Positions 345 through 29,682 of a DNA stretch of 36,160 nt are shown here, piece after piece. Numbering within the stretch: position 1 is the stretch's first letter; every line of letters begins with the position of its first letter. The position numbers and the translations under genes were made by a program. The DNA is from Minisyncoccota bacterium. GTDB taxonomy: Bacteria > Patescibacteriota > Minisyncoccia > Phycocordibacterales > Phycocordibacteraceae. The notes beneath the pieces are model-generated. The model searched no databases. It saw only the letters and a program-made list of their open reading frames with translations, and was not told the DNA's origin. The stretch lies in contig DATKTL010000011.1 in assembly GCA_035531095.1 (NCBI GenBank), forward strand, positions 1-36,160, given 5' to 3'.

Positions 345-422
345 CCCCGTTAGAAACTTAATCCCTAAACGTTAGGAACTCTTTTATGATACACAACTCT
401 TCGAAGCGGGTTTCTAACGGGG
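345..422. repeat. 13-bp perfect inverted repeat CCCCGTTAGAAAC (345-357) / GTTTCTAACGGGG (410-422) bracketing the malic-enzyme start codon
   Basis: Read directly. The arms are exact reverse complements and A344-T423 extends the pairing. A near-copy CGTTAGGAACT lies at 369-379 in the loop. Confidence 0.6.
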
Positions 423-1552
423 TGGACACCAAGAAAATACTGGCAGCGTTCAAGAAGCAGGGGGCGCGCATCGAGACGAAAGCGAAGGTGAAGCTCACGA
501 AGAAAACCGATTTCTCGCTCTGGTACACGCCCGGCGTGGGCGTCGCCTCGCTGCATCTGGCCAAGCACCCGGAGGACGCGCGCAAGATGTCGATCAAGGC
601 GAATAGCGTCGCCATCGTCTCGGACGGCTCGGCGGTGCTCGGCCTCGGCAATATCGGCCCGTACGGCGCGCTGCCGGTGATGGAAGGGAAGGCGCTTATC
701 TTCAAAGCGAAGGCGGACGTTGATGCATGGCCTCTGGTCCTCGATACGCAGGATCCCGATGAGATCGTGCGCATCGTGAAGGCGGTTGCGCCGAACTTCG
801 GCGGTATCAATCTCGAAGACATCGCGGCCCCCGCTTGCTTCGAGATCGAGAAGCGCCTCATCGAAGAGCTCGACATCCCTGTGATGCATGACGACCAGCA
901 CGGCACCGCTATCGTCGTGCTCGCCGGCCTCATCAATGCCGCGAAAGTCGTGAAGAAGGATCTCAAGAAGCTGCGCGTCGTGGTGAGCGGCGCGGGTGCC
1001 GCCGGTACCGCCGTCGCGAAGCTCCTCGCCGCCACGGGCGTGAAGGACATCATCCTCCTCGATCGCGCGGGCGCCATCTATGCGGGACGCGAGGGACTGA
1101 ATGCGCACAAGGCCGAGCTCGCCACGCTCACGAATCCGCGCAAGGCAGAGGGCGGCCTCGCTGAGGTCATGCAGGACGCGGACGTCTTTATCGGTGTCTC
1201 GGGCAAGGGCGTGCTCAAGGCCGAGCATGTCGCCCTCATGGCGCCGCGCGGCATCATATTCGCTCTCGCCAATCCGGAGCCGGAGATCCTGCCGGAGGAG
1301 GCCTGGCAAGCAGGCGCCGAAGTCATCGCGACGGGCCGCAGCGACTTCCCGAACCAGATCAATAATTCTCTCGTCTTCCCGGGCATCTTCCGCGGCGCGC
1401 TCGACAAGGGCGTGAAGCAGATCACCGAGGCGACCAAGCTCCGCGCCGCCCGCGCGCTCGCGGCGCTCGTGGCGAAGCCCTCGGCAGAGAAGATCATCCC
1501 CGACATGCTCGACAAGCGCGTCGTCGGCGCGGTCGCCAAGGCGGTCCGCTAG
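386..1552 (+). CDS. NAD(P)-dependent malic enzyme (short ~390-aa type)
   Basis: 388 aa with LWYTPGV, AIVSDGSAVLGLGNIGP, LPVMEGKALIFK, GGINLEDI and a VVSGAGAAGTA Rossmann motif, all typical of prokaryotic short malic enzymes. Confidence 0.9.
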   Translation: MIHNSSKRVSNGVDTKKILAAFKKQGARIETKAKVKLTKKTDFSLWYTPGVGVASLHLAKHPEDARKMSIKANSVAIVSDGSAVLGLGNIGPYGALPVMEGKALIFKAKADVDAWPLVLDTQDPDEIVRIVKAVAPNFGGINLEDIAAPACFEIEKRLIEELDIPVMHDDQHGTAIVVLAGLINAAKVVKKDLKKLRVVVSGAGAAGTAVAKLLAATGVKDIILLDRAGAIYAGREGLNAHKAELATLTNPRKAEGGLAEVMQDADVFIGVSGKGVLKAEHVALMAPRGIIFALANPEPEILPEEAWQAGAEVIATGRSDFPNQINNSLVFPGIFRGALDKGVKQITEATKLRAARALAALVAKPSAEKIIPDMLDKRVVGAVAKAVR

Positions 1553-1574
1553 CTTCTTGTCTTGCGCTTGATTT

Positions 1575-1583
1575 TGGTATACT
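1575..1583 (+). promoter_or_regulatory. Extended -10 TGgTATACT, 6 nt before the lemA ATG
   Basis: TATACT at 1578-1583 and ATG at 1590. No SD fits in the 6-nt gap. Confidence 0.5.
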
Positions 1584-1589
1584 AGGGGT

Positions 1590-2150
1590 ATGACTACCAC
1601 CACCATCGTGCTCATCGTTGCCGCTGTCGTCGTGCTCTGGGCGATCATGGCTTATAACGGCCTCATTACGCTTACCAATCGCGCCAAGGAGGCCTGGGCC
1701 GACATAAGCGTGCAGCTCAAGCGCCGCTACGACCTCATCCCGAATCTCGTCGAGAGCGTGAAGGGCTATGCCGCGCACGAGTCGAGCGTATTCGAGAATG
1801 TCACCACAGCACGCGCCGCCGCTATGGGCGCGGGCTCTGCGACGCCGGCCGCGCAGGCCGCCGCAGAGAATCAGCTCACCGGCGCGCTGAAGACGCTCTT
1901 CGCCGTTTCCGAGGCGTATCCCGACCTGAAGGCAAATCAGAACTTCCTTCAGCTCCAGCAGGAGCTCGGCGATACCGAAGACAAGATCCAGGCCGCCCGC
2001 CGCTTCTACAATACGACCGTCATGGCGCTCAATACCGCGGAACAGCGGTTCCCGGGCAATATCATCGCCTCATCCTTCAGCTTCAAGCCAATGGACCTCT
2101 TCGAATTGACCGAGGCCGCAGCGGCCGAGCCGGTGAAGGTGCAGTTCTAA
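1590..2150 (+). CDS. lemA: LemA family membrane protein
   Basis: N-terminal TM helix followed by AYNGLITL..AWADISVQLKRRYDLIPNLVESVKGYAAHE, the LemA signature. It is followed by htpX, as in the common lemA-htpX pairing. Confidence 0.9.
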   Translation: MTTTTIVLIVAAVVVLWAIMAYNGLITLTNRAKEAWADISVQLKRRYDLIPNLVESVKGYAAHESSVFENVTTARAAAMGAGSATPAAQAAAENQLTGALKTLFAVSEAYPDLKANQNFLQLQQELGDTEDKIQAARRFYNTTVMALNTAEQRFPGNIIASSFSFKPMDLFELTEAAAAEPVKVQF

Positions 2151-2190
2151 CAGGGGCAGTTTTCTGTTTATCAGGCTAATTTCTAACGGG

Positions 2191-3093
2191 ATGAATCTCT
2201 ACGAGCAGCGTAGCTCGAATATCCGCCGGACCTGGGCCCTCGTGCTCGGCTTCCTCATCGTCGTCATCGCGGTGGGGTACGCCATCTCGTGGTACTACGG
2301 CAATCCCGGCATCCTCTATATCGCGATCGTGCTCGCGGTCGCGACGAATTTCTACGCGTACTGGGAGAGCGACAAGCTCGTGCTCTCGCTCAACCACGCG
2401 CGGCCGGCCTCGCGCGAGGAATTCTTCGATTTCTATACCGTCACCGAGAATCTCGCCATCACGGCCGGGCTGCCGGGGCCGAAGCTCTACGTGATCGACG
2501 ACCCGGCCCCGAACGCTTTCGCGACCGGCCGCGATGAGAAGCATGCGGTCGTCTGCGCGACGACCGGCCTCCTCGCCATGATGACGCGCCCCGAGCTCGA
2601 GGGCGTCATCGCGCACGAGCTCTCGCACGTGAAGAACCGCGACATCCTGCTCATGACGATAGCCGTGGTGCTCGCCGGATTCGTCGCCCTCATCGCGAAT
2701 ATCTTCCTGCGTATGTCGTTCTGGGGCGGCGGTCGTAGCAACGACCGGGAAGGCGGCAATGCGCTCATGATGATACTCGCGGTAGTCGGCATCGTGCTCG
2801 CGCCCTTGGCCGCGAAGCTCATCGAGCTCTCCATCTCGCGCCGCCGCGAGTATCTCGCCGACGCATCAGGCGCGCTGCTCACGCGCTACCCGGAGGGTCT
2901 CGCTTCGGCACTTACGAAGATCGGCAGCTATGCGGCGCCCATGCGCGACGCGAACCTCGCGACCGCGCATCTCTTCATCGGCGACCCCTTCGGCGCGAAG
3001 GCGCAAGGGAGCAGCGGCTGGATCGAGCGTATGTTCTCGACGCACCCGCCCATAAGCGACCGCATCAAGGCCCTCCTTGGCCCGCAGGCGTGA
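2191..3093 (+). CDS. htpX: M48-family zinc metalloprotease HtpX
   Basis: 300 aa, multi-TM, HELSHV zinc motif, a downstream E(Y)LAD region and a C-terminal STHPPISDRI. Confidence 0.9.
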   Translation: MNLYEQRSSNIRRTWALVLGFLIVVIAVGYAISWYYGNPGILYIAIVLAVATNFYAYWESDKLVLSLNHARPASREEFFDFYTVTENLAITAGLPGPKLYVIDDPAPNAFATGRDEKHAVVCATTGLLAMMTRPELEGVIAHELSHVKNRDILLMTIAVVLAGFVALIANIFLRMSFWGGGRSNDREGGNALMMILAVVGIVLAPLAAKLIELSISRRREYLADASGALLTRYPEGLASALTKIGSYAAPMRDANLATAHLFIGDPFGAKAQGSSGWIERMFSTHPPISDRIKALLGPQA

Positions 3094-3109
3094 TATTGGA
3101 AGGGTTTTC

Positions 3110-3118
3110 TGCTATAAA
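3110..3118 (+). promoter_or_regulatory. Extended -10 TGcTATAAA, 10 nt before the tRNA-Ser(GGA) 5' end
   Basis: TATAAA at 3113-3118. The tRNA starts at 3129. Confidence 0.45.
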
Positions 3119-3128
3119 GGAATCACAC

Positions 3129-3215
3129 GGAGGCGTCGCATAGTGGTCTAGTGCACCGCCTTGGAAAGGCGGCAGGCTCGAAAGGGTCTCGGGAGTTCGA
3201 ATCCCCCCGCCTCCG
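3129..3215 (+). tRNA. tRNA-Ser (anticodon GGA), no encoded CCA
   Basis: Hand-folded. Acceptor GGAGGCG/CGCCTCC, anticodon stem CCGCC/GGCGG with loop TTGGAAA, long variable arm, T-loop TTCGAAT, discriminator G. Confidence 0.9.
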
Positions 3216-3218
3216 CAC

Positions 3219-3839
3219 ATGGATAATAAGACAATCGCGACGTATAACCGCCTCGCGCAGGGGTACGACGATGAGACCGCCGATTTCTGGGAGAAATTCC
3301 CCCGTACATTCCTCGACCAGTTCGTCTCCCTAAGCGGCACGACCATTCTCGACGTCGGGAGCGGTCCGGGTCGGGATGGTCTGCTTCTTCAAGAAGCGGG
3401 GAAAGAAGTCATGTGTCTCGATGCTTCAGAGGAAATGGTGAAGCTCTCCTCCGAACGAGGGCTGCCGTCGGTCGTCGGGGACTTCATGGGACTCCCGTTT
3501 CCCGATGCCGCATTCGATGGCGTCTGGGCGTACACGTCGTTGCTCCATGTGCCGAAGGCAGTCGTCGGCAGCGCTTTTGAAGAAGTCGTAAGAGTCCTGA
3601 AGGATGGCGGCATGCTTGGCCTCGGTTTCATCGGGGGAGGACAAGAATTGTATCGGGAGAATTTAGGAGAAGGGAATCCTCGATGGTTCAGTTACTATAT
3701 GAAAGAAGAGGTCGAACGATTGGTCGAAAGACAGGGGTGCGAGCCGGTCTATTTCGAGTCGTTTCCGGCCGGGAAATCCGGATCAAAGGATTATCTTAAT
3801 TTCATTTTCCGCAAAGTTATGAAATCGGATCAATCTTAG
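3219..3839 (+). CDS. Class I SAM-dependent methyltransferase
   Basis: 206 aa with motif I ILDVGSGPGRDG, an acidic post-I residue (LDAS) and motif-II-like FDGVWAY. The ATG lies 3 nt after the tRNA-Ser end. Confidence 0.85.
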   Translation: MDNKTIATYNRLAQGYDDETADFWEKFPRTFLDQFVSLSGTTILDVGSGPGRDGLLLQEAGKEVMCLDASEEMVKLSSERGLPSVVGDFMGLPFPDAAFDGVWAYTSLLHVPKAVVGSAFEEVVRVLKDGGMLGLGFIGGGQELYRENLGEGNPRWFSYYMKEEVERLVERQGCEPVYFESFPAGKSGSKDYLNFIFRKVMKSDQS

Positions 3840-3882
3840 CTCCGGTGCCACTTGGCAGCGAAGCTTCCAAGTTTCAGTTACG

Positions 3883-4116
3883 TTACGCGTAATACGCGCG
3901 CAGGTAGGCGACGATATCGTCCGACTCGTACATCTCGATAGTGCGGTCGGTGTCCACGAGGTAGGGCACTTGGCGCTTGCCGCCGCGCGCTATGAGCTCC
4001 GCCGCGATCGCGTCGTCGGCGATGTTCTTCTCGTCGAAGGTGACGCCGAGCGCGTCGGCCACGTCGAGCACTTTGTGGCAGAACGGGCAGCCGGTCTTTA
4101 CATACAGGGTCAGCAT
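3883..4116 (-). CDS. Glutaredoxin-fold protein (Grx / GST N-terminal-like), CPFC active site
   Basis: 77 aa with LYVKTGCPFCHKV and QVPYLVD, the thioredoxin-fold signature. Confidence 0.8.
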   Translation of the reverse strand: MLTLYVKTGCPFCHKVLDVADALGVTFDEKNIADDAIAAELIARGGKRQVPYLVDTDRTIEMYESDDIVAYLRAYYA

Positions 4117-4124
4117 AGGTAATT

Positions 4125-4133
4125 ACGATAGCA
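4125..4133 (-). promoter_or_regulatory. Extended -10 TGcTATCGT (minus strand), 8 nt before the Grx ATG
   Basis: Reverse complement of 4125-4133. Start codon at 4116-4114. Confidence 0.4.
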
Positions 4134-5279
4134 TTATTTCTTCGTGCCCTGGGGGAGAACGCCCCAGAGCGCCGGGTCTTCGCCGCCGTCGAGCTTGAAT
4201 ATCGCCACGCCGCGCACGCCGAGAGAGCGTGCGAGCGCTATCTTGTCGGCAATGGCCTGCGCATCGCTCCACCACACGATATGGAGCGGCGGAGTTGCTG
4301 CCGCTGCGGCGCCGGCGACCTGCGGCGTGGTCGTGGGCGTATAGACGAAGCTCATCTCGCCGGCTGAATTGCGCGCGGGCGTGATGCCGAGCTCGCCGGC
4401 GAGCGTCAGCGCATAGCTCGGGTTGAGCGCCCAATTGAGGTCGTAGCGATAGCCGGATTGGGAGAGCTTCGTGAAGTCGTACTCGTACCCGTAGGTGGCC
4501 ACGCCGATGACGAGCTTTTTCTTGGAGATGGTCTGTGCGGCGTAGGTCATCACCTTCTTCACCCATGCGGTATCGGCGACGGGGATGTAGGGCTGGCCAT
4601 CGGCGGCGGCGTTGAGTCGCAGGTCGACCGCGCCCTGGTCGTAGGCCATGATCTGCACGCGGTCGCAGTAGCGGTTGATGGCCGTATAGTCGTTCGCGTA
4701 GTCGAGCGTCTTCGGGATGACGTCGAATGCCGAGGCGGGCGGCGTGCGCGGCTCGATGCTGCAGTAGACCCACTTCTGACCCATGCGTGCATAGAGCCCC
4801 TTCAGGAAGAGCGAGAAGTACGGCCGGCTCTCGGCGGACTTGTTCTCGAAGTCGATATTGATGCCGCTGAAGCCCTGCTTTTTCGCCAGATCGGCGATGC
4901 GCACTTCGAGCGCGCGGCGGCGGGGGCCGGATTTCAGGATCGCATCGATAGCTGCGCCGTTGCTCCACATGACGGTCGGGATCATCTTCACTTTTTCGGC
5001 CTTCGTCGTGACGCGGAGCAGACTGGCAGTCGAGGTGGACGAGGTCGCATCGAAACCGAAGGCGTCGTAGAGGGAGCCGTCGTTCTGAACGACATAACCG
5101 AAGGGCATGACGGCAGTGAAGTCTTGCAGGTGGGGGATGACGTCGATGGTGCCGGTGGCTTCCCGCCAGTAGGGAATCCAGCCCGAAATCTCGAGAGGTG
5201 CTATTACCGACTTCGCCGCAGCATGGCTGCTGCCGGGGAGAAGCAGAAGGAGGAAACTGAAGAGCAGGATGCGGCGCAT
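4134..5279 (-). CDS. Secreted glycoside hydrolase family 18-like protein (YaaH/YdhD-type, possible peptidoglycan/chitin hydrolase)
   Basis: Signal peptide MRRILLFSFLLLLLPGSSHAAA, a GH18 catalytic-type motif FSGINIDFEN and a later MAYDQ motif. Confidence 0.75.
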   Translation of the reverse strand: MRRILLFSFLLLLLPGSSHAAAKSVIAPLEISGWIPYWREATGTIDVIPHLQDFTAVMPFGYVVQNDGSLYDAFGFDATSSTSTASLLRVTTKAEKVKMIPTVMWSNGAAIDAILKSGPRRRALEVRIADLAKKQGFSGINIDFENKSAESRPYFSLFLKGLYARMGQKWVYCSIEPRTPPASAFDVIPKTLDYANDYTAINRYCDRVQIMAYDQGAVDLRLNAAADGQPYIPVADTAWVKKVMTYAAQTISKKKLVIGVATYGYEYDFTKLSQSGYRYDLNWALNPSYALTLAGELGITPARNSAGEMSFVYTPTTTPQVAGAAAAATPPLHIVWWSDAQAIADKIALARSLGVRGVAIFKLDGGEDPALWGVLPQGTKK

Positions 5280-5414
5280 CCTGCCATCGTACCATCCGGG
5301 GCTCGGCGAGGGAGGTGCTTTGTTATAAAAGCTCTCGGCAGGTGTATTACTCTATGCAGGCGCACGATGACGTGCGGCTCGCGTTATCAAAATGTAATGG
5401 TCAACCTTACTAAC

Positions 5415-6089
5415 ATGACAAAGAGAATGACAGCGGCGCTCGGCATCCTCGGGACGCTCGCTTTCGCAGGGGTGGCATTCGCACAGACGACAGCGACGCC
5501 GGTCGCAACGGCGCCGGTCGCTTCGCAGCCGCAGGTGCTCACGGTGGGCGCTGCCGGGAAAGTGCTCCTCCGGGGCACGGTGAGCGCGGTTTCTGCAGGA
5601 TCGGTGACGGTCAAGAGCTGGGGCGGCGACTGGACGGTGAACGTCCCTGCGACGGCCGAGGTGCTCCCGCAGGGCTCGACGGTGTCCGGCTTCCAGACAG
5701 GCGACTTCGTCGGCGTGCAGGGCACGATCGACCAGAGCACGAGCTGGACGGTGACAGCGTCTCTCATCCGCGACTGGACGGCGCGTCAGGCGCTGAACCA
5801 GGAAGTGAAAGCGAACGTGCAGGCGGTCCGCCAGACGGAAGCAGCCGGGCCGAAGACCATCCAGGGCGTGCTCTCTAACCTGGATGCGACGGCGCAGACC
5901 TTCACGCTCACGAGCGCGAACGGCACGGCATACACCGTCTCGCTCTCCTCGGGCGTGAAGATGCTCGCGAAGAACTGGACCACGCTCGACTTCACCAAGG
6001 TGAAGGATGGCGACACGGTCCGCGTGTACGGCACGGTCGCGAGCTCCTCGATTACCGCATCGATCTTCCGAGACGTCTCGGTGCGGTAG
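5415..6089 (+). CDS. Secreted protein with two DUF5666-like beta domains
   Basis: Signal peptide MTKRMTAALGILGTLAFAGVAFAQ. Repeated G.V..V....VTV... / DGDTVRVYG modules. The upstream 300+ codons of the 543-aa track ORF are antisense to the GH18 gene. In-frame alternative starts at 5397 and 5427. Confidence 0.65.
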   Translation: MTKRMTAALGILGTLAFAGVAFAQTTATPVATAPVASQPQVLTVGAAGKVLLRGTVSAVSAGSVTVKSWGGDWTVNVPATAEVLPQGSTVSGFQTGDFVGVQGTIDQSTSWTVTASLIRDWTARQALNQEVKANVQAVRQTEAAGPKTIQGVLSNLDATAQTFTLTSANGTAYTVSLSSGVKMLAKNWTTLDFTKVKDGDTVRVYGTVASSSITASIFRDVSVR

Positions 6090-9160: not shown

Positions 9161-9166
9161 TTATAT

Positions 9167-9518
9167 GGACCGGGCCGATAAGCCGAATTCTGTCTGGCCC
9201 CACTTCGCGTGAAGCTACGCGGGGCGAGACGATCATTTATCTGGGCCCGTGATTGCTCACGAGCTCGAGCGGCACTCCCGACCGAAGTCGGGCACGGCCT
9301 TGCACGGGGGTAAGGATTTGGTCGTTGCACCCTCGTCTCTCGACGAGATTCTCCCCGAAGGGAGTCTCCGGCTTTCGCCTTTGACGTCACTGTGGTCACC
9401 TCTCATCTCGCGATGTATGGGAGTTACCCATTACCTGTTTGCGCGTCCTTTCGGACGGCCCGTGTTCGGACTTTCCTCTCCGTGGGAAATCTCGCAGAGC
9501 GATCGTCTAGCCTGGTCC
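9167..9518 (-). ncRNA. rnpB: RNase P RNA (bacterial type A-like, ~352 nt)
   Basis: The minus strand contains GAGAGGAAAGUCCGAACAC (reverse complement of 9467-9478 and flanks) and ACAGAAUUCGGCUUAUCGGCCC (reverse complement of 9178-9193), the universally conserved P4-forming regions. The P1 ends GGACCAGGC / GCCCGGUCC pair. It has its own TGcTATAAT promoter. Confidence 0.85.
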
Positions 9519-9524
9519 GAGAAC

Positions 9525-9533
9525 ATTATAGCA
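9525..9533 (-). promoter_or_regulatory. Extended -10 TGcTATAAT for rnpB
   Basis: Reverse complement of 9525-9533. It ends 6 nt before the P1 5' G at 9518. Confidence 0.55.
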
Positions 9534-9626
9534 CACATTTTGAGTGTGGATGAATGCCGTTCTCGGAGCGGCTGCAAGGTATACTGGAGGGTATTATCAC
9601 TATCAGAATCACCACTTTTACCTATC

Positions 9627-11990
9627 ATGCCTCCGCAACCGTCAGCTCCGCGTCGCCGCTCGTTCGATACTGCCAGCATCTGGGCGCTCTTCATCACGAT
9701 CGTCGCTGTGCTCGTCGTCATCCCGTCTGCCGCGACGCCGTTCGCGACGACGAAGGTTTTCCTGCTTGCCGCCGGAACGCTCGTCACGCTCGCGCTCTAC
9801 ATCCTCGCGCGTCTCACGCGCGGTAATGTCATCTTCCCGTCTTCAGTGCTCGTGGGCGCGCTCTGGCTGCCGGTCGTCGCGTACGCGCTCTCTGCGGCAT
9901 TCTCCGGCGCGCCGTTCGCAGGCTCGCTCTGGGGGGCAGCGCTCGAGCCTGACACGCTCGGCTTCATGCTCGCGGTGGCCGTGCTCGGGACGCTCGCAGC
10001 GCTCATCCTGCGCCGTCCTGAGCACTACCGGTCGTTCCTGAATGTCGGCGCCTACACGTTCGGCGCTATGGCTCTCGTCGGGACGATCATCGTCATCATC
10101 GGCCAATTCCTCCCGAATGTCGTTTCTCCGGCGTTCTCGATCGTCGGGTCCATGAGCGATCTCGCCATCTTCCTCGGCCTCGGCGTCGTCCTCCTCCTCA
10201 TCACGTTCCGCTTCCTCGAACCGTCCCTGCGCGCTCGCCGCGCGCTTCTTGCAAGCGGCGTCCTGGCGCTCTTTCTGATTGCTGTCGCCAACTCGTCCCT
10301 GGTATGGACACTCCTCGCGCTCGCCTCGCTCGGCCTCTTCGTCGAAGCGGTCATGCGGCACGGCTCGAATGCTGCGGACGCTGATCTCGAGGGTGCCGTC
10401 GTCGTCGCCGAAGCCCCGCTTGAAGAAGGCGAGGGGAATCGTCCGCTCGCGCTCCCGCTCGCCGTGCTCGCGGTATCACTCTTCTTCCTCATCGGCGGCA
10501 CGCTGGGCAGCGCTCTCGGCAGTGCGCTCCATGTGAACATGCTCAGCGTCCGTCCCTCGTGGCAGTCGACGCTCTCGGTCGCGGAGAAGACTTACGCGGT
10601 CTCGCCGGTCTTCGGGAGCGGCCCGAGCACATTCGGCGCACAGTGGCTCAAGTATCGCGATGCGTCGCTCAATTCGACCGTTTTCTGGAACGTCGATTTC
10701 TCCTCCGGTATCGGATTCATCCCGACATCTCTCGTGACGACCGGCATCGTCGGCGCGCTCGCCTGGCTCGCCTTCCTCGGTCTCTTCATCGTGCTCGGGC
10801 TCCGCATGCTCCTCGTGCGCACGCCGCAAGACGCCTTCACGCGGTATGTCGCCATCGTCTCGTTCGTCGGCTCGCTCTACCTCTTCGCCGTCGCGCTGTT
10901 CGATCTGCCCGGCACGATCATCATCGCGCTCGCCTTCGTCTTCGCGGGGCTCTTCATATCGACGACGCGATTCGCGAAGGACGGTCGCCAGTGGGGCATC
11001 CTGTTCTCACGCAGTCCGCGCCTCGGTTTCGTCATCGTATTCTCGCTGACTATCCTCCTCCTTTCCTCAGTCGTGGTCGCCTACGCGCTCGTCGAGCGCT
11101 ACATCGCGACGACCGAGGTGGCGAGCGCGGCAGCCGCGCTCTCTGCGGGGAACCTCGACGCAGCCGATGCGGCAGCGCAGAGCGCGCTCTCGTTCGCGCC
11201 GACCGTGTCGGCCTATCAAGTCCAGGCCAGTGTCGCGAAAGCGCAGCTCGGCATCATCGCCGCTTCGACGACTATAGAGAAGAGCGCCGCGCAGCAGGCG
11301 TATCAGAGTGCGCTCTCCTCCGGCATCAACGCCGCGCTGACCGCGACGAATCTCGACCCATCTGATTACCAGAACTGGATCGCGCTCGGCAACCTCTATG
11401 CGCAGGCGGTACCGCTCGGCGTCTCAAGCGCCTACGAGAGCGCGAAGACCGCGTACCAGAAAGCGCAGGCTCTCAACCCGACGAACCCGCAGATCCCCTA
11501 TATCCTCGCGCAGCTCGATATCGCGAATAAGGACACGAAGACGGCGCAGGATGACCTGAAAGCGGCCATCTCGCTGAAGCAGGACTACACCGCAGCGATC
11601 TTCCTCCTCTCGCAGCTCGAGGTGCAGGACGGCAACGTGAAAGACGCGCTCACGTCGGCGCTCGCGGCGGCATACTTTGCGCCGAATGATCCGAACATCC
11701 TCTTCCAGGTCGGCGTGCTCTATGCGGCACAGAACGATTTCCCGAATGCCGCCTCGGCGCTCTCTGCCGCGGTCGCAGCGAATCCGCAATTCGCGAACGC
11801 GCGCTACCTGCTCGCGGCGGTCTATGCCAAGCAGGGCGATATGACGAACGCGCTCGCGCAGATGCAGGCGATCGCGGCGATGTCGGGCGACAACGCGACC
11901 GCCGTCGCCTCGCAGCTCTCGGCGCTTGCGGCAGGCAAGAATCCGTTCCCGGCGAATCTCCTCTCGGCTTCTTCGACGCCCGTGAAATAA
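9627..11990 (+). CDS. Large polytopic membrane protein, O-antigen-ligase/Wzy-like core with C-terminal TPR repeats
   Basis: About 788 aa with more than 10 predicted TM helices. The C-terminal ~250 aa have repeated TPR-like A..Y..A....P.. units (YQNWIALGNLY, AQALNPTNPQ, AVAANPQFANARYLLAAVYAKQGD). The track ORF start at 9249 is rejected because it overlaps rnpB. Confidence 0.7.
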   Translation: MPPQPSAPRRRSFDTASIWALFITIVAVLVVIPSAATPFATTKVFLLAAGTLVTLALYILARLTRGNVIFPSSVLVGALWLPVVAYALSAAFSGAPFAGSLWGAALEPDTLGFMLAVAVLGTLAALILRRPEHYRSFLNVGAYTFGAMALVGTIIVIIGQFLPNVVSPAFSIVGSMSDLAIFLGLGVVLLLITFRFLEPSLRARRALLASGVLALFLIAVANSSLVWTLLALASLGLFVEAVMRHGSNAADADLEGAVVVAEAPLEEGEGNRPLALPLAVLAVSLFFLIGGTLGSALGSALHVNMLSVRPSWQSTLSVAEKTYAVSPVFGSGPSTFGAQWLKYRDASLNSTVFWNVDFSSGIGFIPTSLVTTGIVGALAWLAFLGLFIVLGLRMLLVRTPQDAFTRYVAIVSFVGSLYLFAVALFDLPGTIIIALAFVFAGLFISTTRFAKDGRQWGILFSRSPRLGFVIVFSLTILLLSSVVVAYALVERYIATTEVASAAAALSAGNLDAADAAAQSALSFAPTVSAYQVQASVAKAQLGIIAASTTIEKSAAQQAYQSALSSGINAALTATNLDPSDYQNWIALGNLYAQAVPLGVSSAYESAKTAYQKAQALNPTNPQIPYILAQLDIANKDTKTAQDDLKAAISLKQDYTAAIFLLSQLEVQDGNVKDALTSALAAAYFAPNDPNILFQVGVLYAAQNDFPNAASALSAAVAANPQFANARYLLAAVYAKQGDMTNALAQMQAIAAMSGDNATAVASQLSALAAGKNPFPANLLSASSTPVK

Positions 11991-11995
11991 GGGGT

Positions 11996-12001
11996 TAGAA
12001 T
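11996..12001 (+). promoter_or_regulatory. -10 TAGAAT, 8 nt before the murJ ATG
   Basis: TAGAAT at 11996-12001 and ATG at 12010, with no SD. Confidence 0.45.
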
Positions 12002-12009
12002 AGGGCCAT

Positions 12010-13692
12010 ATGGTCAAGCGGCTCTTCGAGCGCATCGCAGCACCGGTACGCGGCCTTCACCAGGCCGCGTACTTGCTCGCGGCGCTGACGCTCGCCTCGC
12101 AAGCCCTCGCTCTCCTTCGCGATCGCACCTTCGCACACACCTTCGGCGCGGGGCAAGTGCTCGATCTCTATTATGCTGCGTTCCGCGTGCCGGACCTGGT
12201 CTTCGCTCTCGTCTCGTCGCTCGTGAGCGCCTACGTGATCATTCCGCGCATCACGGGGATGGATAGGGAGAAGACGCGCGAGCTTCTCTCGGAGTCGGCG
12301 ACGTTCCTCTTCGCTATCGGCGGCATCATCTGCATCGTGATCGGCATCTTCATGCCGCAGTTCCTCGCTCTCCTCTACCCGAGCTTCGTCGCGTCGCCCG
12401 CGCAGGCGCAATTCGTGCTCCTCGCCCGCATCCTGCTCATCCAGCCCATCCTCCTCGGGCTCTCCGGCATCATCTCGAGCGTGACGCAGGTGCACCGCCG
12501 CTTCACGCTCTTCGCCCTCTCGCCGGTCCTCTATAATCTCGGCATCATCCTCGGCACCGTCATCCTCTACCCGCGCTGGGGCTTGCCGGGCATCGGCATC
12601 GGCGTCGTCATCGGTGCCGTCGGCTACCTCGCCGTGAACATCCCGGTCGTCATCGAGGCCGGCGTCGTACCGCGCTTCCGCCTCCCGAAATTCGCGACCA
12701 TGGCGCCGATCGTGCATAATTCCGTACCGCGCTCGCTCGCGCTCGGCGTGAATTCGTTCACGATGCTCTTCCTCACGGCGATGGCTTCGCGAGTCGGCAC
12801 CGGATCGGTCTCCGTCTTCACGTTCGCCGGCAATCTCGAGGCGGTCCCGCTCGCTCTCATCGGTTCCTCGTACGCGGTGGCGGCATTCCCAGCGCTCTCC
12901 GAAGCGCTCGCGCTCAAGGACCACGATGAGTTCATGAAGATACTCTCGGCGGGCGCGCGGCATATCATCCTCTGGTCGGTCGTCGCGCTCGGCCTTATTG
13001 CGGTGCTGCGCGCGCATCTCGTGCGCGTCATCCTCGGAAGCGGCGCCTTCGATTGGAATGCGACGCGCCTTACCGCGGCGCTCCTCGTCATCCTGGCGAT
13101 CGGTCTCGTGGTCGACGCGCTCGAGCTCCTCTTCTCCCGAGCGCTCTACGCGGCGCGGCAATCGTGGCGCCCGCTCCTCTATCAGCTGGCCGGCGGCGCG
13201 CTTACGGTCGTCCTCGCGCTCGCTTTCGTCGCTATGCCAGCCCGCACGCTCTTGACCCCGCTCGCTGATTTCCTTAAGGTCGGCGATATCCCCGGCACCG
13301 CCGTCCTCCTCCTCGCGCTTGCTAACATCATCGGGCAATTCTTCCTCGTTTTCCTCTCTCTCGTCGCGCTGCGGAGCGTCGCTCCCGGGCTCTCCCGCAC
13401 GCTTCTGCGGCCGCTTATCGACGGCAGTATCGCGGCGGTCGCGGGCGGTGCGGCTACGTACGCGGTCCTCTCGCTTGAGGGCGGCATCGCCCCCCTCACG
13501 ACCCTTATGTCCGTCTTTACCCAAGGGCTCGTTGCTGGTATCGTTGGCCTTGCTGCCTCGGCGCTCGCGCTCTACCTCACTGAGAATGAAGAATTCCGCA
13601 TCGTCGTGAATGCGCTCGGCCGGCTCTTGCGGTCGCCGGCGAAAGCGTCTGCCGCACTCGAGCCGTCCGCCGAAGAACCGGTACAACCGTAA
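12010..13692 (+). CDS. murJ: Lipid II flippase MurJ (MviN)
   Basis: 560 aa with ~14 TM helices. N-terminal block LLALLRDRTFAHTFGAGQVLDLYYAAFRVPDLVF is typical of MurJ. Confidence 0.9.
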   Translation: MVKRLFERIAAPVRGLHQAAYLLAALTLASQALALLRDRTFAHTFGAGQVLDLYYAAFRVPDLVFALVSSLVSAYVIIPRITGMDREKTRELLSESATFLFAIGGIICIVIGIFMPQFLALLYPSFVASPAQAQFVLLARILLIQPILLGLSGIISSVTQVHRRFTLFALSPVLYNLGIILGTVILYPRWGLPGIGIGVVIGAVGYLAVNIPVVIEAGVVPRFRLPKFATMAPIVHNSVPRSLALGVNSFTMLFLTAMASRVGTGSVSVFTFAGNLEAVPLALIGSSYAVAAFPALSEALALKDHDEFMKILSAGARHIILWSVVALGLIAVLRAHLVRVILGSGAFDWNATRLTAALLVILAIGLVVDALELLFSRALYAARQSWRPLLYQLAGGALTVVLALAFVAMPARTLLTPLADFLKVGDIPGTAVLLLALANIIGQFFLVFLSLVALRSVAPGLSRTLLRPLIDGSIAAVAGGAATYAVLSLEGGIAPLTTLMSVFTQGLVAGIVGLAASALALYLTENEEFRIVVNALGRLLRSPAKASAALEPSAEEPVQP

Positions 13693-16004: not shown

Positions 16005-16036
16005 CTTCATCAGATTGTCACCAAAGGGAGGTTGTC

Positions 16037-16531
16037 GTGAATACTATAGTGCTGAGACACAAGCTCGAGGAAGTGCCGATCAAGCGGCACGGTACGATCG
16101 CTGACGCATTCGCGATCGGCCTCGAGAAACGTCGGAAGGGTATCATCGCGAGTCTGGCGATATTCCGGGAACCGCTCGCGATGGAGTACGAAGGGGAGAT
16201 GAAGTATACGAAGACGCTCTCCCTCGCCACGCCCGGACGGAAGATGGACGTGCGCGAGTTCTACCTCGCGCTTCACGAGAGGCAGTGCCATCCGGCGAGC
16301 ATGAACGAGGATGTGGCATATCTCTTCATGCTCATGCATCACCACGTCGAGGCCGGCCCCATCCTCCACCTCGGGACCATTCTCCGCAGTGAGAGCTGCG
16401 AAGCCCAGAAGGAGCAGCGGCTTCTCACGAGAGAGGACGGGGGTGGCAGACTCGTCGATTTCTATTATCCTCAGACGTCGATCGAACCGAATTGCAGCGT
16501 CATCGTGAGGGAGGATGGCAGGCGCCACTGA
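16037..16531 (+). CDS. Hypothetical cytoplasmic protein, no family recognised (GTG start with strong SD)
   Basis: 164 aa. The plus frame has G/C-rich third positions, while the mirror minus ORF 16010-16528 does not read like a protein. AAGGGAGG lies 5 nt upstream of the GTG. It contains His/Cys-rich LHERQCH and MLMHHHVE. Confidence 0.6.
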   Translation: MNTIVLRHKLEEVPIKRHGTIADAFAIGLEKRRKGIIASLAIFREPLAMEYEGEMKYTKTLSLATPGRKMDVREFYLALHERQCHPASMNEDVAYLFMLMHHHVEAGPILHLGTILRSESCEAQKEQRLLTREDGGGRLVDFYYPQTSIEPNCSVIVREDGRRH

Positions 16532-16550: not shown

Positions 16551-16584
16551 AGGGCCCATGGTCGTCAAGACGACCATGGGCCCT
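16551..16584 (+). terminator. Strong hairpin after the orphan gene (terminator-like, weak T-tract)
   Basis: AGGGCCCATGGTCG / TCAAGA / CGACCATGGGCCCT gives a perfect 14-bp stem. Confidence 0.5.
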
Positions 16585-22111: not shown

Positions 22112-23302
22112 TTACGCGAGCGAACGGTTACCGGAAGCGGCGAGATCGGCGGGGGCGACCTCGTCGCGGAGCGCGCGATAGAAGCCGGCGAGAGCGATCA
22201 TGATGGCGTTGTCGGTCGTAAGGGCTGCCGACGGGATGCGAAGCGCGACGTTCGGATACTCTTCCTTCATCTTCACGGCGAAGGTGCGGCGGATATGCGT
22301 ATTGGCCGAGACGCCGCCGCCGAGCACGAGGGTCTGCGCACCGGTCTGCTCGAGCGCCCGGGCGGTCTTCTTAGAGAGTACGTCGGTCACGGCGTTCTCG
22401 AATTCGTGCGCGAGGTGCTGTTTCTCGCGTTCGCTCATGTCAGGATTCTTCTTCAGAAGATACAGCACGGCAGTCTTGAGCCCCGAGAAGGAGAAGTCGC
22501 AGGTCGCGTCGTTCAGCATCGGCCGCGGCAGCTCGAACTTTGAAACCGGACTTCCGAGTTCGGAAGAATTTCTGACAAGCTCGGCGAGGCGCGAGATCTC
22601 CGGGCCGCCGGGGTACGGGAGGCCGAGCATGCGGGCGACCTTGTCGAAAGCTTCGCCGACCGCGTCGTCCTTCGTCTGCCCGATGAGCTCATACTCGAGC
22701 CACTCCTTCATCAGTACGAGTTCGGTGTGGCCGCCGGAGATGAGGAGGGCGAGTACCGGCAGCTTTACGTCCTTAATATGCAGAAGGACACCTTCTGCAT
22801 CATTCGTCGCAAGCGCCGCCATGATATGGCCCTCCATGTGATTCACCGCAACGAGCGGTTTGCTCCAGAGAAGAGCGAGCGCTTTGGCGAAGTTGATGCC
22901 GACCCAGAGCGCCGGCTCGAGGCCGGGGCCGGCTGTGACGGCGATGGCATCGATAGCGGGCGGCTCGCACTCGGAGACGAAGTCGAAGAAGGCTTCGGCG
23001 AGACCGGGTTCGCGCGACAAGATCGCAGCGATTTTGTCGCGCGTCTCTTCCGGTATCGCCTGAGTATCTTCGTGGAGGAGTTCAGCTTCTTCGAGTGCGG
23101 CCTCGAGGAGCGGGACGAGATTCTTCGCATGCTCGCGCTTGGCGAGGGCAGGGAAGACGCCGCCGTATTCCCGGTGAATATCGATCTGCGAGAGGAGGGC
23201 GTTCCCGAGCACGGTGAACGACGCGCTCTGTTCATCGCCGTGCGCCTCGACGATCGCGATCGCGGTCTCATCACACGACGTTTCTATGGCCAATACTTTC
23301 AT
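22112..23302 (-). CDS. tsaD: tRNA N6-adenosine threonylcarbamoyltransferase TsaD
   Basis: MKVLAIETSCDETAIAIV, GGVFPALAKREH, AVTAGPGLEPALWVG, LISGGHTEL, GGGVSAN. It is ~55 aa longer than typical TsaD. Confidence 0.95.
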   Translation of the reverse strand: MKVLAIETSCDETAIAIVEAHGDEQSASFTVLGNALLSQIDIHREYGGVFPALAKREHAKNLVPLLEAALEEAELLHEDTQAIPEETRDKIAAILSREPGLAEAFFDFVSECEPPAIDAIAVTAGPGLEPALWVGINFAKALALLWSKPLVAVNHMEGHIMAALATNDAEGVLLHIKDVKLPVLALLISGGHTELVLMKEWLEYELIGQTKDDAVGEAFDKVARMLGLPYPGGPEISRLAELVRNSSELGSPVSKFELPRPMLNDATCDFSFSGLKTAVLYLLKKNPDMSEREKQHLAHEFENAVTDVLSKKTARALEQTGAQTLVLGGGVSANTHIRRTFAVKMKEEYPNVALRIPSAALTTDNAIMIALAGFYRALRDEVAPADLAASGNRSLA

Positions 23303-24811: not shown

Positions 24812-24817
24812 ATTATC
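24812..24817 (-). promoter_or_regulatory. -10 GATAAT, 8 nt before the DHH ATG, overlapping the upstream gene's TAA
   Basis: Reverse complement of 24812-24817. Start codon at 24803-24801. Confidence 0.4.
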
Positions 24818-25715
24818 GCACGAAGCGCACATAGATGCCGGCAGGGATGACGCGTTCTGATTTCGATTCCCGTATGAAAAGCTCGCCGCACTCGCCGTCG
24901 GTCTCGCCGAAGACGCTCTCGATAGCCTGCGCGAAGGAGCGTGGCGCATAGCCGGCGGCATAGCCGTTTATGAGGAAGAAGGAGCCGGGCTTGTCCGAGA
25001 ATATCGCTTTGAGCGTCTCGAGGAGCTCGGGGAGCGCTTCTTCGATCTTCCACACCTCACCCTTGGCGCCGCGGCCGAAGGCCGGCGGGTCGAGGATGAT
25101 GCCGTCGTATTTCGCACCGCGCCGCGCTTCGCGCTTCGCGAAAGCGAGCGCGTCGTCGAGGAGCCAGCGGATCTTGTCTTCGCCGACGCCCGAGCGGCGT
25201 GCATTGTCGTGTGCCCAGTCGAGCGACTGCTTGCTCGCATCGACGTGCGTGACGTGCGCACCGGCAAGCGCGGCGACGACGGAGGCGATGCCGGTGTAAC
25301 CGAAGAGATTCAGCACCTTCGGCAACATGTCGGACATATCATGTCCGACATTAGATGTCGGACATGATATGTCCGACACTCGAGCGTGGAGCCATTTCCA
25401 GTTCGGCGCCTGCTCGGGGAAGACGCCGGTATGCTTGAAGCTCGTGAGCGTTGCGGTGAAGCGGGTATCGCCCCACGCGAGCTCCCATGGCTCGGGTATC
25501 GGCTTCTGTACGTCCCAGCCGCCGCGCTTGTCGCGGAAGGCGAAGACGGCGCTCGCGTTTTTCCAGAGCTCCGGCTCCTGCTTCGCCCAGAGTGCTTGTG
25601 TCTCGGGCCGTGCGACGGTCACCGCGCCGAAGCGCTCGAGCTTCATGTTGTCGCCCGAGTCGAGGAGCTCATAATCGCTCCAAGGAAGCGTCGTGAGATG
25701 TCGATCGTATTTCAT
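24813..25715 (-). CDS. Class I SAM-dependent RNA methyltransferase (COG1092 / RlmI-like, PUA-less)
   Basis: WSDYELLDSGDNMKLERFG, FKHTGVFPEQ, VLNLFGYTGIASV (motif I), HVDASK, IILDPPAFGRG (motif IV). Start M11 (25715) is preferred because its ATG overlaps the rlmB TGA (ATGA). Confidence 0.8.
   Translation of the reverse strand: MKYDRHLTTLPWSDYELLDSGDNMKLERFGAVTVARPETQALWAKQEPELWKNASAVFAFRDKRGGWDVQKPIPEPWELAWGDTRFTATLTSFKHTGVFPEQAPNWKWLHARVSDISCPTSNVGHDMSDMLPKVLNLFGYTGIASVVAALAGAHVTHVDASKQSLDWAHDNARRSGVGEDKIRWLLDDALAFAKREARRGAKYDGIILDPPAFGRGAKGEVWKIEEALPELLETLKAIFSDKPGSFFLINGYAAGYAPRSFAQAIESVFGETDGECGELFIRESKSERVIPAGIYVRFVR
25328..25378. repeat. 51-bp nested palindrome made of four alternating 11-mers, in frame within the methyltransferase CDS
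   Basis: ATGTCGGACAT-atc-ATGTCCGACAT-tag-ATGTCGGACAT-gat-ATGTCCGACAc (25327-25379). Every position except the central 3 nt is self-complementary. Confidence 0.9.
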
Positions 25716-26485
25716 GAAAGAAATTCCGGATGTTTGCGACTCCATTCGTAGAAGACGACCGCCGCCGAGACAGCGGCATTGAGCGACTCGGTTCGCGGAT
25801 GCATCGGAATCGAGAGTGCGACGTCGCAGGCTTCGAGTGTTTTCTCGCGGATACCGGCGCCTTCGTTGCCGATGATGAATGCCGCCGGGACGTCGAATTT
25901 CTCGTCAGTGAGCGCCGTAGAGCCTTCCATCGCGAGGCCGTAGGTCCAGAAGCCTTTCTCCTTGAGGATCTTGATGGTGTTGTTCACGTTGCCGATGGAG
26001 ACGAGCGGGACGCGGAATGCCATGCCGGCGGAGGTCTTCACGACGACGCCGGTGACGCCGGCCTGGTGGCGTTCCGGGATGAGCACAGCCGAGAGGCCGA
26101 AAGCTGCAGCGGAGCGGATGATAGCGCCGACGTTGTGCGGGTCGTGTATCTCCCCGAGGATGGCGACCGCGGGATTTCGGGCGGGGTTGAGGGTTTTCAG
26201 GAAATCATCGAAAGGGATGAGCAGGGCAGAGGGGTCCATGATGGCGATGATGCCCTGGTGAGTGGCATCGCGCCCCACGAGCTCCTTGCCTTTACTCACG
26301 GCCAAGGGGACGGTCGGGATATTGTGCATCTGGAGGAGCGCGCGCAGCTCTTTATCGCCCGCATCGTGCGCGAGGAATACTTTTCGTATGACCTGCGGCT
26401 TGCTTTCGAGCGCTTCCATGAGCGCATGCTTGCCGTAGATATAGACTTTTTCTTTCGATGGGGAGGAGGTTCGTTTCTGTCGCAT
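25712..26485 (-). CDS. rlmB: SpoU/TrmH-family RNA 2'-O-methyltransferase (RlmB-like)
   Basis: N-terminal substrate-binding domain (IYGKHALMEAL) and SPOUT motifs LGEIHDPHNVGAIIRSAAAFG, IIGNEGAGI, IPM....SLNAAVSAAV. Confidence 0.85.
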   Translation of the reverse strand: MRQKRTSSPSKEKVYIYGKHALMEALESKPQVIRKVFLAHDAGDKELRALLQMHNIPTVPLAVSKGKELVGRDATHQGIIAIMDPSALLIPFDDFLKTLNPARNPAVAILGEIHDPHNVGAIIRSAAAFGLSAVLIPERHQAGVTGVVVKTSAGMAFRVPLVSIGNVNNTIKILKEKGFWTYGLAMEGSTALTDEKFDVPAAFIIGNEGAGIREKTLEACDVALSIPMHPRTESLNAAVSAAVVFYEWSRKHPEFLS

Positions 26486-29541: not shown

Positions 29542-29560
29542 TTCGATTCCCCGTGGGGTC
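29542..29560 (+). repeat. Perfect 19-nt inverted copy of the tRNA-Glu T-loop/acceptor 3' end
   Basis: TTCGATTCCCCGTGGGGTC (29542-29560) is the exact reverse complement of 29612-29630 inside the tRNA-Glu gene. Confidence 0.85.
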
Positions 29561-29573
29561 TACAAACGGCAAC

Positions 29574-29600: not shown

Positions 29601-29610
29601 GGCCGATTTG

Positions 29611-29682
29611 TGACCCCACGGGGAATCGAACCCCGATTTACGCCGTGAAAGGGCGCTGTCCTAACCGTTAGACGATAGGGCC
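29611..29682 (-). tRNA. tRNA-Glu (anticodon TTC), no encoded CCA
   Basis: The minus strand reads GGCCCTA-TC-GTCT-AACGGTTA-GGAC-A-GCGCC-CTTTCAC-GGCGT-AAAT-CGGGG-TTCGATT-CCCCG-TGGGGTC-A. Confidence 0.85.

Follow-up and report, generated by a model that had tools for sequence, protein, structure and literature searches.

A 36,160-nt stretch of DNA from a Minisyncoccota bacterium (contig DATKTL010000011.1, hereafter the window) carries at 25327-25379, within the gene of an RNA methyltransferase, a palindrome that is very probably an in-frame doublet of the type known as REPIN (repetitive extragenic palindromic [REP] doublet forming a hairpin), living inside genes and mobilised most likely by a Y1/HUH transposase resembling the REP-associated tyrosine transposases (RAYTs). 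An earlier note on this DNA, made from its letters, had likened the palindrome to the Rickettsia palindromic elements (RPEs), miniature repeats which colonise open reading frames (ORFs) without disturbing their frame. The comparisons reported here support that likeness and sharpen it to a REPIN/RAYT-like system, which the earlier note did not name. The evidence comes from the anatomy of the window copy, its spread through unrelated genes of related bacteria, the phase in which it is read, the way its letters covary, and the association of its units with a transposase-like gene.

Architecture of the doublet

On the plus strand the letters are ATGTCGGACAT atc ATGTCCGACAT tag ATGTCGGACAT gat ATGTCCGACAc, and the alternation of inverted 11-mers, to which attention had been drawn earlier, makes the array self-complementary: a repeat search returns long arms at 25328-25351 and 25355-25378, 24 nt each, 100% complementary and 3 nt apart, and nested hairpins of 11 and 10 nt within them, each 24-nt arm being an 11+3+11 palindrome in itself. 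The two foldings then envisaged, a pair of tandem hairpins or one long arm, both have their counterpart among the detected repeats. Tandem Repeats Finder presents the same letters as a tandem array of period 14 in 3.8 copies. The 11-mer ATGTCSGACAT, with no more than one mismatch, occurs five times in the window against 0.45 expected, a number reached in none of 100 shuffles, and four of the five occurrences are the array itself.

The palindrome thus stands as first described, and its length does not: what had been given as 51 bp, or 17 codons, proves when judged from other copies to be two 25-nt units and a 3-nt spacer, 53 nt or 18 codons in all. Compared with the consensus 53-mer the window copy is changed at its outermost base, at the freely varying centre base and at one base adjacent to the centre, the last being a G to A change in the spacer (GAT to AAT) which puts Asn (N) in place of Asp (D); pairing is relaxed at ±1 of the spacer, as fits a hairpin loop. 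Each unit is of the short stem-loop design of a REP, with a 6-bp inner stem (GGACAT/ATGTCC in unit 1), a 3-nt loop and outer arms ATGTy'/yACAT, and the inverted pair forms the larger hairpin of a REPIN, with 24-bp perfect arms about a 3-nt loop and a predicted stability of about -48 kcal/mol for the region. The exact subtype of the window copy is GGACATATCATGTCC. The minus strand, which is the coding one, is free of stops across the array as had been noted, reading VSDISCPTSNVGHDMSD(M), while the mirror frame of the plus strand reads MSDISCPTLDVGHDMSD. There is no second copy in the window, again as stated earlier, but only a decayed hairpin of a second family in tsaD.

A tolerant loop of a methyltransferase

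In the translated ORF 24813-25745, which encodes an RlmI/RlmK-like enzyme dependent on S-adenosylmethionine (SAM), the array adjoins VLNLFGYTG directly on its N-terminal side, and in the numbering of the 300-aa form it lies between helix 100-117 and strand beta1 at 133-137. That this linker ahead of beta1 should tolerate extra residues had been anticipated, and the residues in front of the LNLF motif do vary between lineages. Among the 120 closest orthologues (72-100% identical to the window protein and, where a source name is given, from Minisyncoccota, Paceibacterota, Kaiserbacteria or other members of the Candidate Phyla Radiation, CPR) the site is empty in 61, occupied by this element family in 33 and by other or decayed inserts in 26. 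Orthologues free of an insert have a modal length of 287 aa, and the 33 filled ones share a P-T-S-D-V-G core between variable flanks. The best solved homologue, 2igt, is without 12 residues at exactly the insert site. In an AlphaFold2 model of the methyltransferase (mean predicted local distance difference test score, pLDDT, 83.8) the insert makes up the last part of helix 100-117 together with a loop, 118-132, modelled at low confidence, that leads into beta1. The site is, on the predicted structure, a lineage-variable surface loop, and the inserted 18 residues are very probably a passenger rather than a functional module.

For comparison at the level of DNA, 80 genome loci around methyltransferase orthologues were collected. 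About 20 of the 80 have perfect in-frame hairpins at the same codon site, which differ in their letters but are built on a common plan, [GGAC xT nnn Ax' GTCC] y ACATC n GATGT y' [GGAC xT n'n'n' Ax' GTCC], where each bracketed 15-mer is palindromic. The offset of the element from a W-x-W motif varies, its D being at position 7, 9, 10 or 12, which hints at more than one event. A count of gains and losses on a neighbour-joining tree of the 120 orthologues gave 25 parsimony changes and was not used; independent insertions are not claimed from that tree because it is star-like and unreliable.

Spread through unrelated genes

A scan of metagenome stretches with the pattern GGAC-N7-GTCC-N-ACAT-NNN-ATGT-N-GGAC found 122 copies in 117 stretches. 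All 122 doublets lie in stop-free ORFs, none shorter than 147 aa, whose products form at least 29 clusters, and for most of the clusters tested the Pfam domains match the ORF. The hosts recognised by Pfam comprise the delta' (holB) and alpha (dnaE) subunits of DNA polymerase III, transketolase, TGT, GluRS (gltX), TsaD, UvrB, UvrC, a ZIP transporter, TatD, PheT, MnmA, a Mur ligase (murC-like) and the methyltransferase, together with AlaRS, ArgRS, Fmt, DprA, RpiB, a VirD4-like ATPase, an epimerase, an aminotransferase and a glycosyltransferase. Near-copies of the window 53-mer itself are found in genes as different as dnaE (locus L090, 51 of 53 letters identical), holB (L100, 50/53; also L126, 50-51/53) and the Mur ligase gene (L148, 50/53). 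More than one copy on a contig was met in L092, L139, L146+L149 and L165, up to three strict copies standing on one 213-kb contig. In 1.12 Mb, where 0.8 occurrences of the arm unit would be expected, there are 35. The genome from which the window comes is represented by 36 kb, holding one copy.

The family has its hosts in Paceibacteria (CPR/Patescibacteria). With 122 copies, at least 29 host clusters and 116 of the 122 in a single phase, the earlier picture of an RPE-like miniature palindromic repeat colonising ORFs holds well, and the search for further arrays that it called for finds the same array in many other genes, nearly always in frame. Viral contigs scanned with the element pattern gave no match, and so no sign of a phage vector. 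A scan of the window against Rfam found nothing at the palindrome, its only matches being RNase P RNA and tRNAs.

One phase, and a constraint on DNA

The phase in which the 116 copies are read gives D-x-x-x-P-T-S-D-V-G-x-x-x-S, and the rare copies in other phases are in real genes, for example rpiB in L092. In coding orientation the right outer arm, yACAT, is well kept and the left one, ATGTy', is decayed. The decay has a ready cause: if y' is A, an intact left arm spells ATG TAG GAC and so brings in an in-frame stop, and perfect 53-55-mers are found only where y' is C or G, the encoded residues then being M-S-D or M-W-D, as they are in the window subtype. The pattern of left-arm decay argues that the copies are translated and that selection for an open frame has shaped them. 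The possibility that the insert is bypassed in translation or spliced out was considered and rejected, every copy being in frame and stop-free, which would be unnecessary if the segment were skipped.

The letters of the arms, by contrast with those of the frame, are held together by pairing. At the five to six variable arm positions 94-100% of pairs are Watson-Crick, with four pair types at each position, a figure that falls to 39% if each arm is matched with the arm of another copy. Looser pairing is confined to ±1, the loop, and ±6, the junction, and among 97 distinct copies of the family 47 pair without a fault over 21 bp. Mismatches on the sense strand number 33 GT and 66 AC, with no preference for G.U, and a reading of the hairpin as an RNA structure was rejected on this ground. 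Watson-Crick covariation free of such a bias therefore places the constraint on DNA rather than on RNA or peptide. In L034 the palindrome has been kept by a double change that turns PTSDVG into PASDAG. The element also occurs in both orientations, DVVR..RTTS and DVRR..RRTS being the same DNA flipped, with A at the centre of 52 copies and T at that of 40.

At boundaries ±21, 22, 26 and 27 there are no direct-repeat flanks above a shuffled control, and the 4-nt repeat TTCT that the eye picks out in L004 does not hold for the copies in general; the element is without the target-site duplication which, along with terminal inverted repeats, marks a miniature inverted-repeat transposable element derived from a DDE transposon. 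The tetranucleotide GTAG appears, in ATGTAGGAC, only when y'=A (51 of 97 copies), and the window copy, with ATGTCGGAC, is without it.

Units, doublets and reused sites

One codon site of holB is met in three states among orthologues: with the full doublet, with its right half only, or with unrelated sequence of the length of a single unit. An example of the right half, S-H-V-G-P-R-R-S-Y-I, is encoded by ATGTA-GGACCTCGGAGGTCC-TACAT, a single 25-nt unit. Such alternation of doublets, single units and unrelated sequence at one codon site is seen in holB, in the methyltransferase gene and in tsaD, and single units also stand alone elsewhere. Inverted palindromic doublets accompanied by singlets are the structure of REPINs and REPs.

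A hairpin census of 1.15 Mb brought out tsaD, 1.5-2.5 kb from the methyltransferase site, as a second hot spot. In L040 its insert is a 43-nt sequence identical, except for the central base, to that at the methyltransferase site of L017. At least eight different palindromic in-frame families occur at the tsaD site, several of them common to the methyltransferase site, and the reported element is one family of a broader set. The window has at its own tsaD hot spot the decayed hairpin already mentioned, of the ELGGxxSKF type; this is the same phenomenon, not the reported element. Intact relatives (GAACTTGGAGG...CCTCCAAGTTC) are found at the tsaD site of other genomes and also in the flanks of a second Y1_Tnp gene, in L202, which is bracketed at 11380-11402 and 12105-12125 by hairpins ACTTGGAGGCC-G-GGCCTCCAAGT of that family.

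Some further inserts deserve mention in their own right. Within tsaD (22112-23302, minus) a 33-nt near-perfect palindrome at 23011-23043, cgcgcgacaagatcgc-A-gcgattttgtcgcgcg, encodes RDKIAAILSR in a CPR-specific insertion of TsaD; it is present at the same site in about 25 orthologous loci with compensatory changes, such as cgcgcgccaaaatttc-A-gaaattttggcgcgcg, and, unlike the reported element, was seen at this one site only. An in-frame insert of about 78 nt, an imperfect hairpin encoding ...ARKQSGRPEGGDPRTFSQQ..., is found at the methyltransferase site of L014 (about 10340-10440), L024, L028, L032, L041, L043 and L051; it has compensatory changes in its outer stem and occurs in both genes, the tsaD site of L032 having it at 6875. 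Further families behaving alike are RRLGTVSEGAEE, TAGFGSGNTP and SNLNSDSQGSTLEF. In L114 the dnaE that hosts the element (470-5038) contains an intein as well, with a LAGLIDADG domain (Pfam Intein_splicing, LAGLIDADG_3), and this is a case of two kinds of in-frame selfish insert in one essential gene.

A RAYT-like gene bracketed by its units

All collected loci were searched by tblastn with sequences of IS608 TnpA and E. coli YafM; the one weak match (E 0.075), obtained with the E. coli RAYT sequence, served as a lead only and was checked afterwards with curated models and a fold search. The ORF concerned (L145, 3337-4014) matches the NCBIfam model 'REP-associated tyrosine transposase', NF047646, at E 2e-9 and 37 bits, below the cut-off of 80, and Pfam Y1_Tnp, PF01797, at 7e-4 and 20 bits, below the cut-off of 23. 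It has homologues in seven other loci, every one of which had been collected only for containing the repeat. The family, here called RAYT-like, numbers 1421 members at E<=1e-5, with proteins of 220-230 aa and invariant motifs H75-x-H77 and Y134-x-H-x-N138. With an AlphaFold2 model of mean pLDDT 72.5, the top 20 PDB matches in Foldseek are IS200/IS605 transposases only (E ~1e-3), the best TM-score, 0.45/0.59, being that with E. coli TnpA-REP (4er8); PDB sequence searches with the protein and its profile returned no meaningful match. The motifs and the modelled fold fit a Y1/HUH transposase, whether of the RAYT clade or of the IS200 kind.

The gene keeps close company with the repeats. In 14 of 14 loci that have it (eight from the element scan and six collected independently via the protein) single 25-nt units stand on both sides, within ~0-40 nt where scored, so that these related loci have the arrangement of a RAYT gene flanked by its cognate repeats. 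Most of the genes also contain, in frame at about codons 47-56 and in a low-confidence loop of the model, a further unit with the consensus N-V-G-R-T-T-S-Y-I and a peptide that follows the flanking subtype. Each RAYT-like orthologue has its own arm subtype, and in the 11 loci that could be scored the other copies have the arm subtype of the flanks in 17 of 24 cases, where 2.5 are expected and none of 1000 permutations reaches 17. The order rplY - RAYT-like gene - fba - pfkB - tkt, a sugar-metabolism cluster, is preserved in most loci, which is what vertical descent of a RAYT should produce and a multicopy insertion sequence (IS) should not.

Table 1. Coordinates of the doublet, its parts, its host gene and related features (in the window except where a locus is named)
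Feature	Position	Strand	Remarks
REPIN-like doublet, two inverted 25-nt palindromic units 3 nt apart	25327-25379	minus (coding)	translated VSDISCPTSNVGHDMSDM
Unit 1, REP-like	25327-25351		ATGTC-GGACAT-atc-ATGTCC-GACAT; itself palindromic
Spacer of 3 nt, loop of the long hairpin	25352-25354		tag on plus strand, cta on coding strand; consensus of other copies c-n-g
Unit 2, unit 1 inverted	25355-25379		loop gat, complement of atc; ends in c where a match would need t, its only outer mismatch
Host gene, class I SAM-dependent RNA methyltransferase, RlmI/RlmK-like	24813-25745	minus	310 aa; PF10672; 2igt_A, E 6e-60
Decayed hairpin of a second in-frame family, ELGGxxSKF type (SELGSPVSKFE)	22535-22561	minus	tsaD hot spot; GAACTCGGAAGTCCGGTTTCAAAGTTC (ELGSPVSKF)
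In-frame unit inside RAYT-like gene	L106 3796-3830; L198 10167-10197; L203 7366-7396

How the copies may spread, and what else could explain them

The unit can be written ATGTy'-GGACxT-nnn-Ax'GTCC-yACAT, two inverted copies being joined by a 3-nt spacer. Its likely mobiliser would be the chromosomal, mostly syntenic RAYT-like Y1/HUH tyrosine transposase whose gene stands between single units belonging to the same subfamily. If it acts as IS200/IS605 TnpA and E. coli TnpA-REP do, this enzyme would recognise the unit once it has folded into a hairpin of single-stranded DNA, cut next to the hairpin and rejoin it elsewhere with no duplication of the target. The copies that survive would be those which landed in, or were trimmed to, the one phase free of stops, and this phase would encode a hydrophilic turn, D-x-x-x-P-T-S-D-V-G-x-x-x-S, in a tolerant surface loop, in this instance the linker leading into the SAM-binding beta1 strand of an rRNA methyltransferase. 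That copies persist inside genes would follow from the very small amount of intergenic DNA in streamlined genomes.

Several observations sit uneasily with a REPIN-like doublet moved in this way. The same codon sites are filled by different subtypes in very divergent genomes, and filled alleles are without about five native codons present in the empty ones, which is not what clean insertion would leave. Simple random transposition explains neither, and together they suggest that the element inserts where a hairpin already exists or that sites are converted in situ; repair by template switching may contribute by keeping the arms perfect. None of the 122 doublets is clearly intergenic, while classical REPs and REPINs are extragenic with spacers of tens of bases. 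In three of 11 loci the dispersed copies are of another subtype than the flanks. There is no RAYT-like gene in the 36-kb window or in the 80 methyltransferase-centred loci, nor did a Pfam scan of 28 further window ORFs find a transposase; for this reason the partner is unproven for the window's genome and for its exact subtype, and it is by extension from related loci that the genome is taken to encode such an enzyme. The family scores below both curated cut-offs (37 against 80 bits, 20 against 23), its fold match of E ~1e-3 comes from a model of mean pLDDT 72.5 with PDB sequence searches empty, and the association of gene and repeat is one of adjacency and co-variation only.

Some of these points would suit palindromes made and perfected where they stand, by template switching in replication or by fold-back synthesis: a small palindrome native to a permissive loop would be doubled in inverted orientation and its arms kept identical, with neither a dedicated enzyme nor transposition. 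The window copy does show a hierarchy of 5, 11, 25 and 53 nt; the methyltransferase, tsaD and holB loops carry many unrelated palindromic families; single units in holB have the same length as non-palindromic native sequence; some five native codons of filled alleles are replaced and not simply added to; and half of the copies have perfect arms although their host genes are only 60-85% identical. An origin in place is nevertheless unlikely, leaving unexplained the identical 43-53-nt sequences in unrelated genes and genomes, the invariant GGAC/GTCC/ACATC core across 29 host clusters, and a transposase-like gene bracketed by subtype-matched units. Chimeric reads, too, can yield palindromes, and the window has one copy only, but an artefact of assembly or amplification such as an inverted chimera, which the earlier note had allowed for on a small scale, deserves practically no credence: the same architecture, with the reading frame always kept, is found in more than 100 contigs from independent projects (NCBI metagenome-assembled genomes, JGI, ENA), and these independent assemblies exclude it.

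Might the segment instead be there for what it does, as a signal or as a peptide? A functional cis-element, either an mRNA hairpin for translation or stability (autoregulation of the methyltransferase by mimicry of its substrate, for instance) or a dyad site for a regulator or recombinase, would accord with the very stable hairpin and with compensatory changes at conserved codon sites in several genes. It is improbable all the same, as half of the closest orthologues have no insert, the hosts are at least 29 unrelated housekeeping gene clusters with both orientations in use, the sense strand shows no tolerance of G.U, Rfam has no matching family, and a perfect 24-bp duplex within an ORF would probably hinder rather than regulate; the same spread over host-gene clusters disfavours the coding regulator or recombinase site that had been suggested earlier as an alternative. 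Just as little probability attaches to a peptide module, in which D-x-x-x-PTSDVG-x-x-x-S would be selected as a tag, modification site or interaction loop and the palindrome would be secondary. The strong bias to one phase, the surface placement and the conserved PTSDVG core speak for it; against it, where the two conflict it is the peptide that gives way and the palindrome that is preserved (PASDAG in L034, and different residues from different arm subtypes), copies in other phases occur in real genes such as rpiB, units lie outside ORFs beside the transposase-like gene, and the segment is predicted to be disordered.

If the doublets are REPIN-like, as we hold very probable, a bolder proposition can be entertained, though only tentatively and with the odds rather against it: that a RAYT/REPIN-type replicator in Paceibacteria has shifted to an essentially intragenic life, its doublets being long-lived in-frame loops at a restricted number of permissive codon sites in essential genes of streamlined genomes, repeatedly overwritten to the current specificity of the transposase. 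Were this so, it would be a vertically inherited DNA replicator shielded from deletion by the essentiality of its host genes, and a source of recurrent loop variation in core proteins.

Relation to known systems

REP and REPIN repeats were reportedly connected with RAYT tyrosine transposases by Nunvar in 2010, and in-frame palindromic elements of Rickettsia (RPE-1 and relatives) are said to have been described by Ogata et al. in 2000. The element behaves like an RPE and is not a member of that group. It shares with RPEs the insertion of palindromic repeats in frame into unrelated housekeeping genes at structurally tolerant, fold-compatible positions, and the presence of several families per genome. 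Classic RPEs differ in being imperfect palindromes of ~100-150 bp, confined to Rickettsia and with no known transposase (reviewed in PMC10969869), whereas the element here is of 53 nt and in Paceibacteria; kinship in sequence with RPEs is not to be expected.

With REP/REPIN systems and their RAYT, or TnpA-REP, enzymes (Bertels & Rainey 2011 PMC3116915, PMC3337134; Messing 2012 PMC3479197; Bertels 2017 PMC5581495) there are many points in common: a 25-nt palindromic unit, inverted doublets which can fold as one long or two small hairpins, singlets beside doublets, many subtypes with compensatory changes in the stem, no target duplication, and a mostly syntenic Y1/HUH transposase-like gene bracketed by cognate units. 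Those systems are extragenic, however, and the present element is almost wholly intragenic and in one phase, its intergenic representatives being only single units beside the RAYT-like gene and a few others. Their spacer is typically 20-100 nt and here it is 3 nt in an element of 53 nt; the enzyme here is below the curated RAYT and Y1_Tnp thresholds and has a unit in frame in its own gene; the hosts are CPR bacteria; and the GTAG tag is restricted to y'=A subtypes and absent from the window copy.

Intragenic REPs are not without precedent. Di Nocera et al. (2013, PMC3733652) described GTAG/CGTC REPs within genes of Opitutus terrae, Thauera and Rickettsia conorii, the RPE-4 and RPE-6 of the last included; singlets and dimers, some of the latter with partners 1-2 bp apart, were present in known genes, many of them for replication or repair (uvrA, uvrB), and encoded 20-30 extra residues, and RAYT genes were flanked by GTAG repeats. 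In that case most of the family lies between genes and only a minority of copies within them, and here intragenic copies are the rule, with a phase bias; unit sequence, host lineage and enzyme clade also differ. With IS200/IS605 elements the likeness is in the predicted fold of the associated protein and, by analogy with the recognition of hairpins on single-stranded DNA by IS608, ISDra2 and TnpA-REP (PMC3479197, PMC6006769), it would be expected to extend to recognition of hairpin ends and lack of target duplication. The repeats here are, however, gene-free, with ends that are identical perfect palindromes in place of distinct left and right ends, and the transposase-like gene, unlike that of a multicopy IS, is mostly in conserved synteny with no identical copies in the loci examined.

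A literature search on palindromic in-frame, REPIN or RAYT repeats in CPR, Patescibacteria or Parcubacteria, or on the peptide PTSDVG, found no relevant paper in the library searched. The kind of element is already known from REP/REPIN/RAYT systems, intragenic REPs and RPEs, and no new principle is involved; what we have is apparently an undescribed system in CPR bacteria. Its distinctive traits are the CPR host, the near-exclusively intragenic location in a single phase, the compact 53-nt doublet, the divergent enzyme with a unit of its own, and the reuse of a few permissive loops by several families.

Implications

The family accounts for odd insertions of 10-20 residues in core CPR proteins, among them methyltransferases, TsaD, subunits of DNA polymerase III, aminoacyl-tRNA synthetases and UvrB/C, which inflate alignments and can be mistaken for lineage-specific functional loops. 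Genomes of about 1 Mb with almost no intergenic space, in which nearly all repeats are translated, offer a natural experiment on the survival of selfish DNA and on what proteins will tolerate. The matching of flanking and dispersed subtypes across many subtypes provides a ready series for the study of co-evolution of HUH enzymes with their hairpins, and the 25-nt units are simple substrates for biochemistry. On the practical side, perfect 24-27-bp hairpins within essential genes matter for assembly, PCR and gene calling.

Other features of the window

The segments 29542-29570 and 29602-29630 form a 29-nt inverted repeat, 86% complementary, of which one arm overlaps the 3' part of a tRNA-Glu gene (29610-29682, minus), while the other, ~40 nt away, repeats some of that gene in inverted orientation; it could be an integration scar or an att-like remnant. 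ORF 9249-11990 (plus), a 913-aa TPR protein in its longest reading, shares its 5' part with the RNase P RNA of the opposite strand (9163-9518, minus; Rfam 110 bits), and its true start is probably further downstream. Three long ORFs, 365-1648 (minus, 427 aa), 4458-6089 (plus, 543 aa) and 11995-13686 (minus, 563 aa), match nothing in Pfam at E<=1e-4; since two of the three are lower in third-position GC than their neighbours, some may be wrong-frame calls. At 16551-16584 there is a 34-nt palindrome, AGGGCCCATGGTCGTC aa GACGACCATGGGCCCT, in which only the two middle bases fail to match; it is separated by 23 nt from the start of a minus-strand ORF (16010-16528, no Pfam match), looks operator-like and is unrelated to the family reported here.

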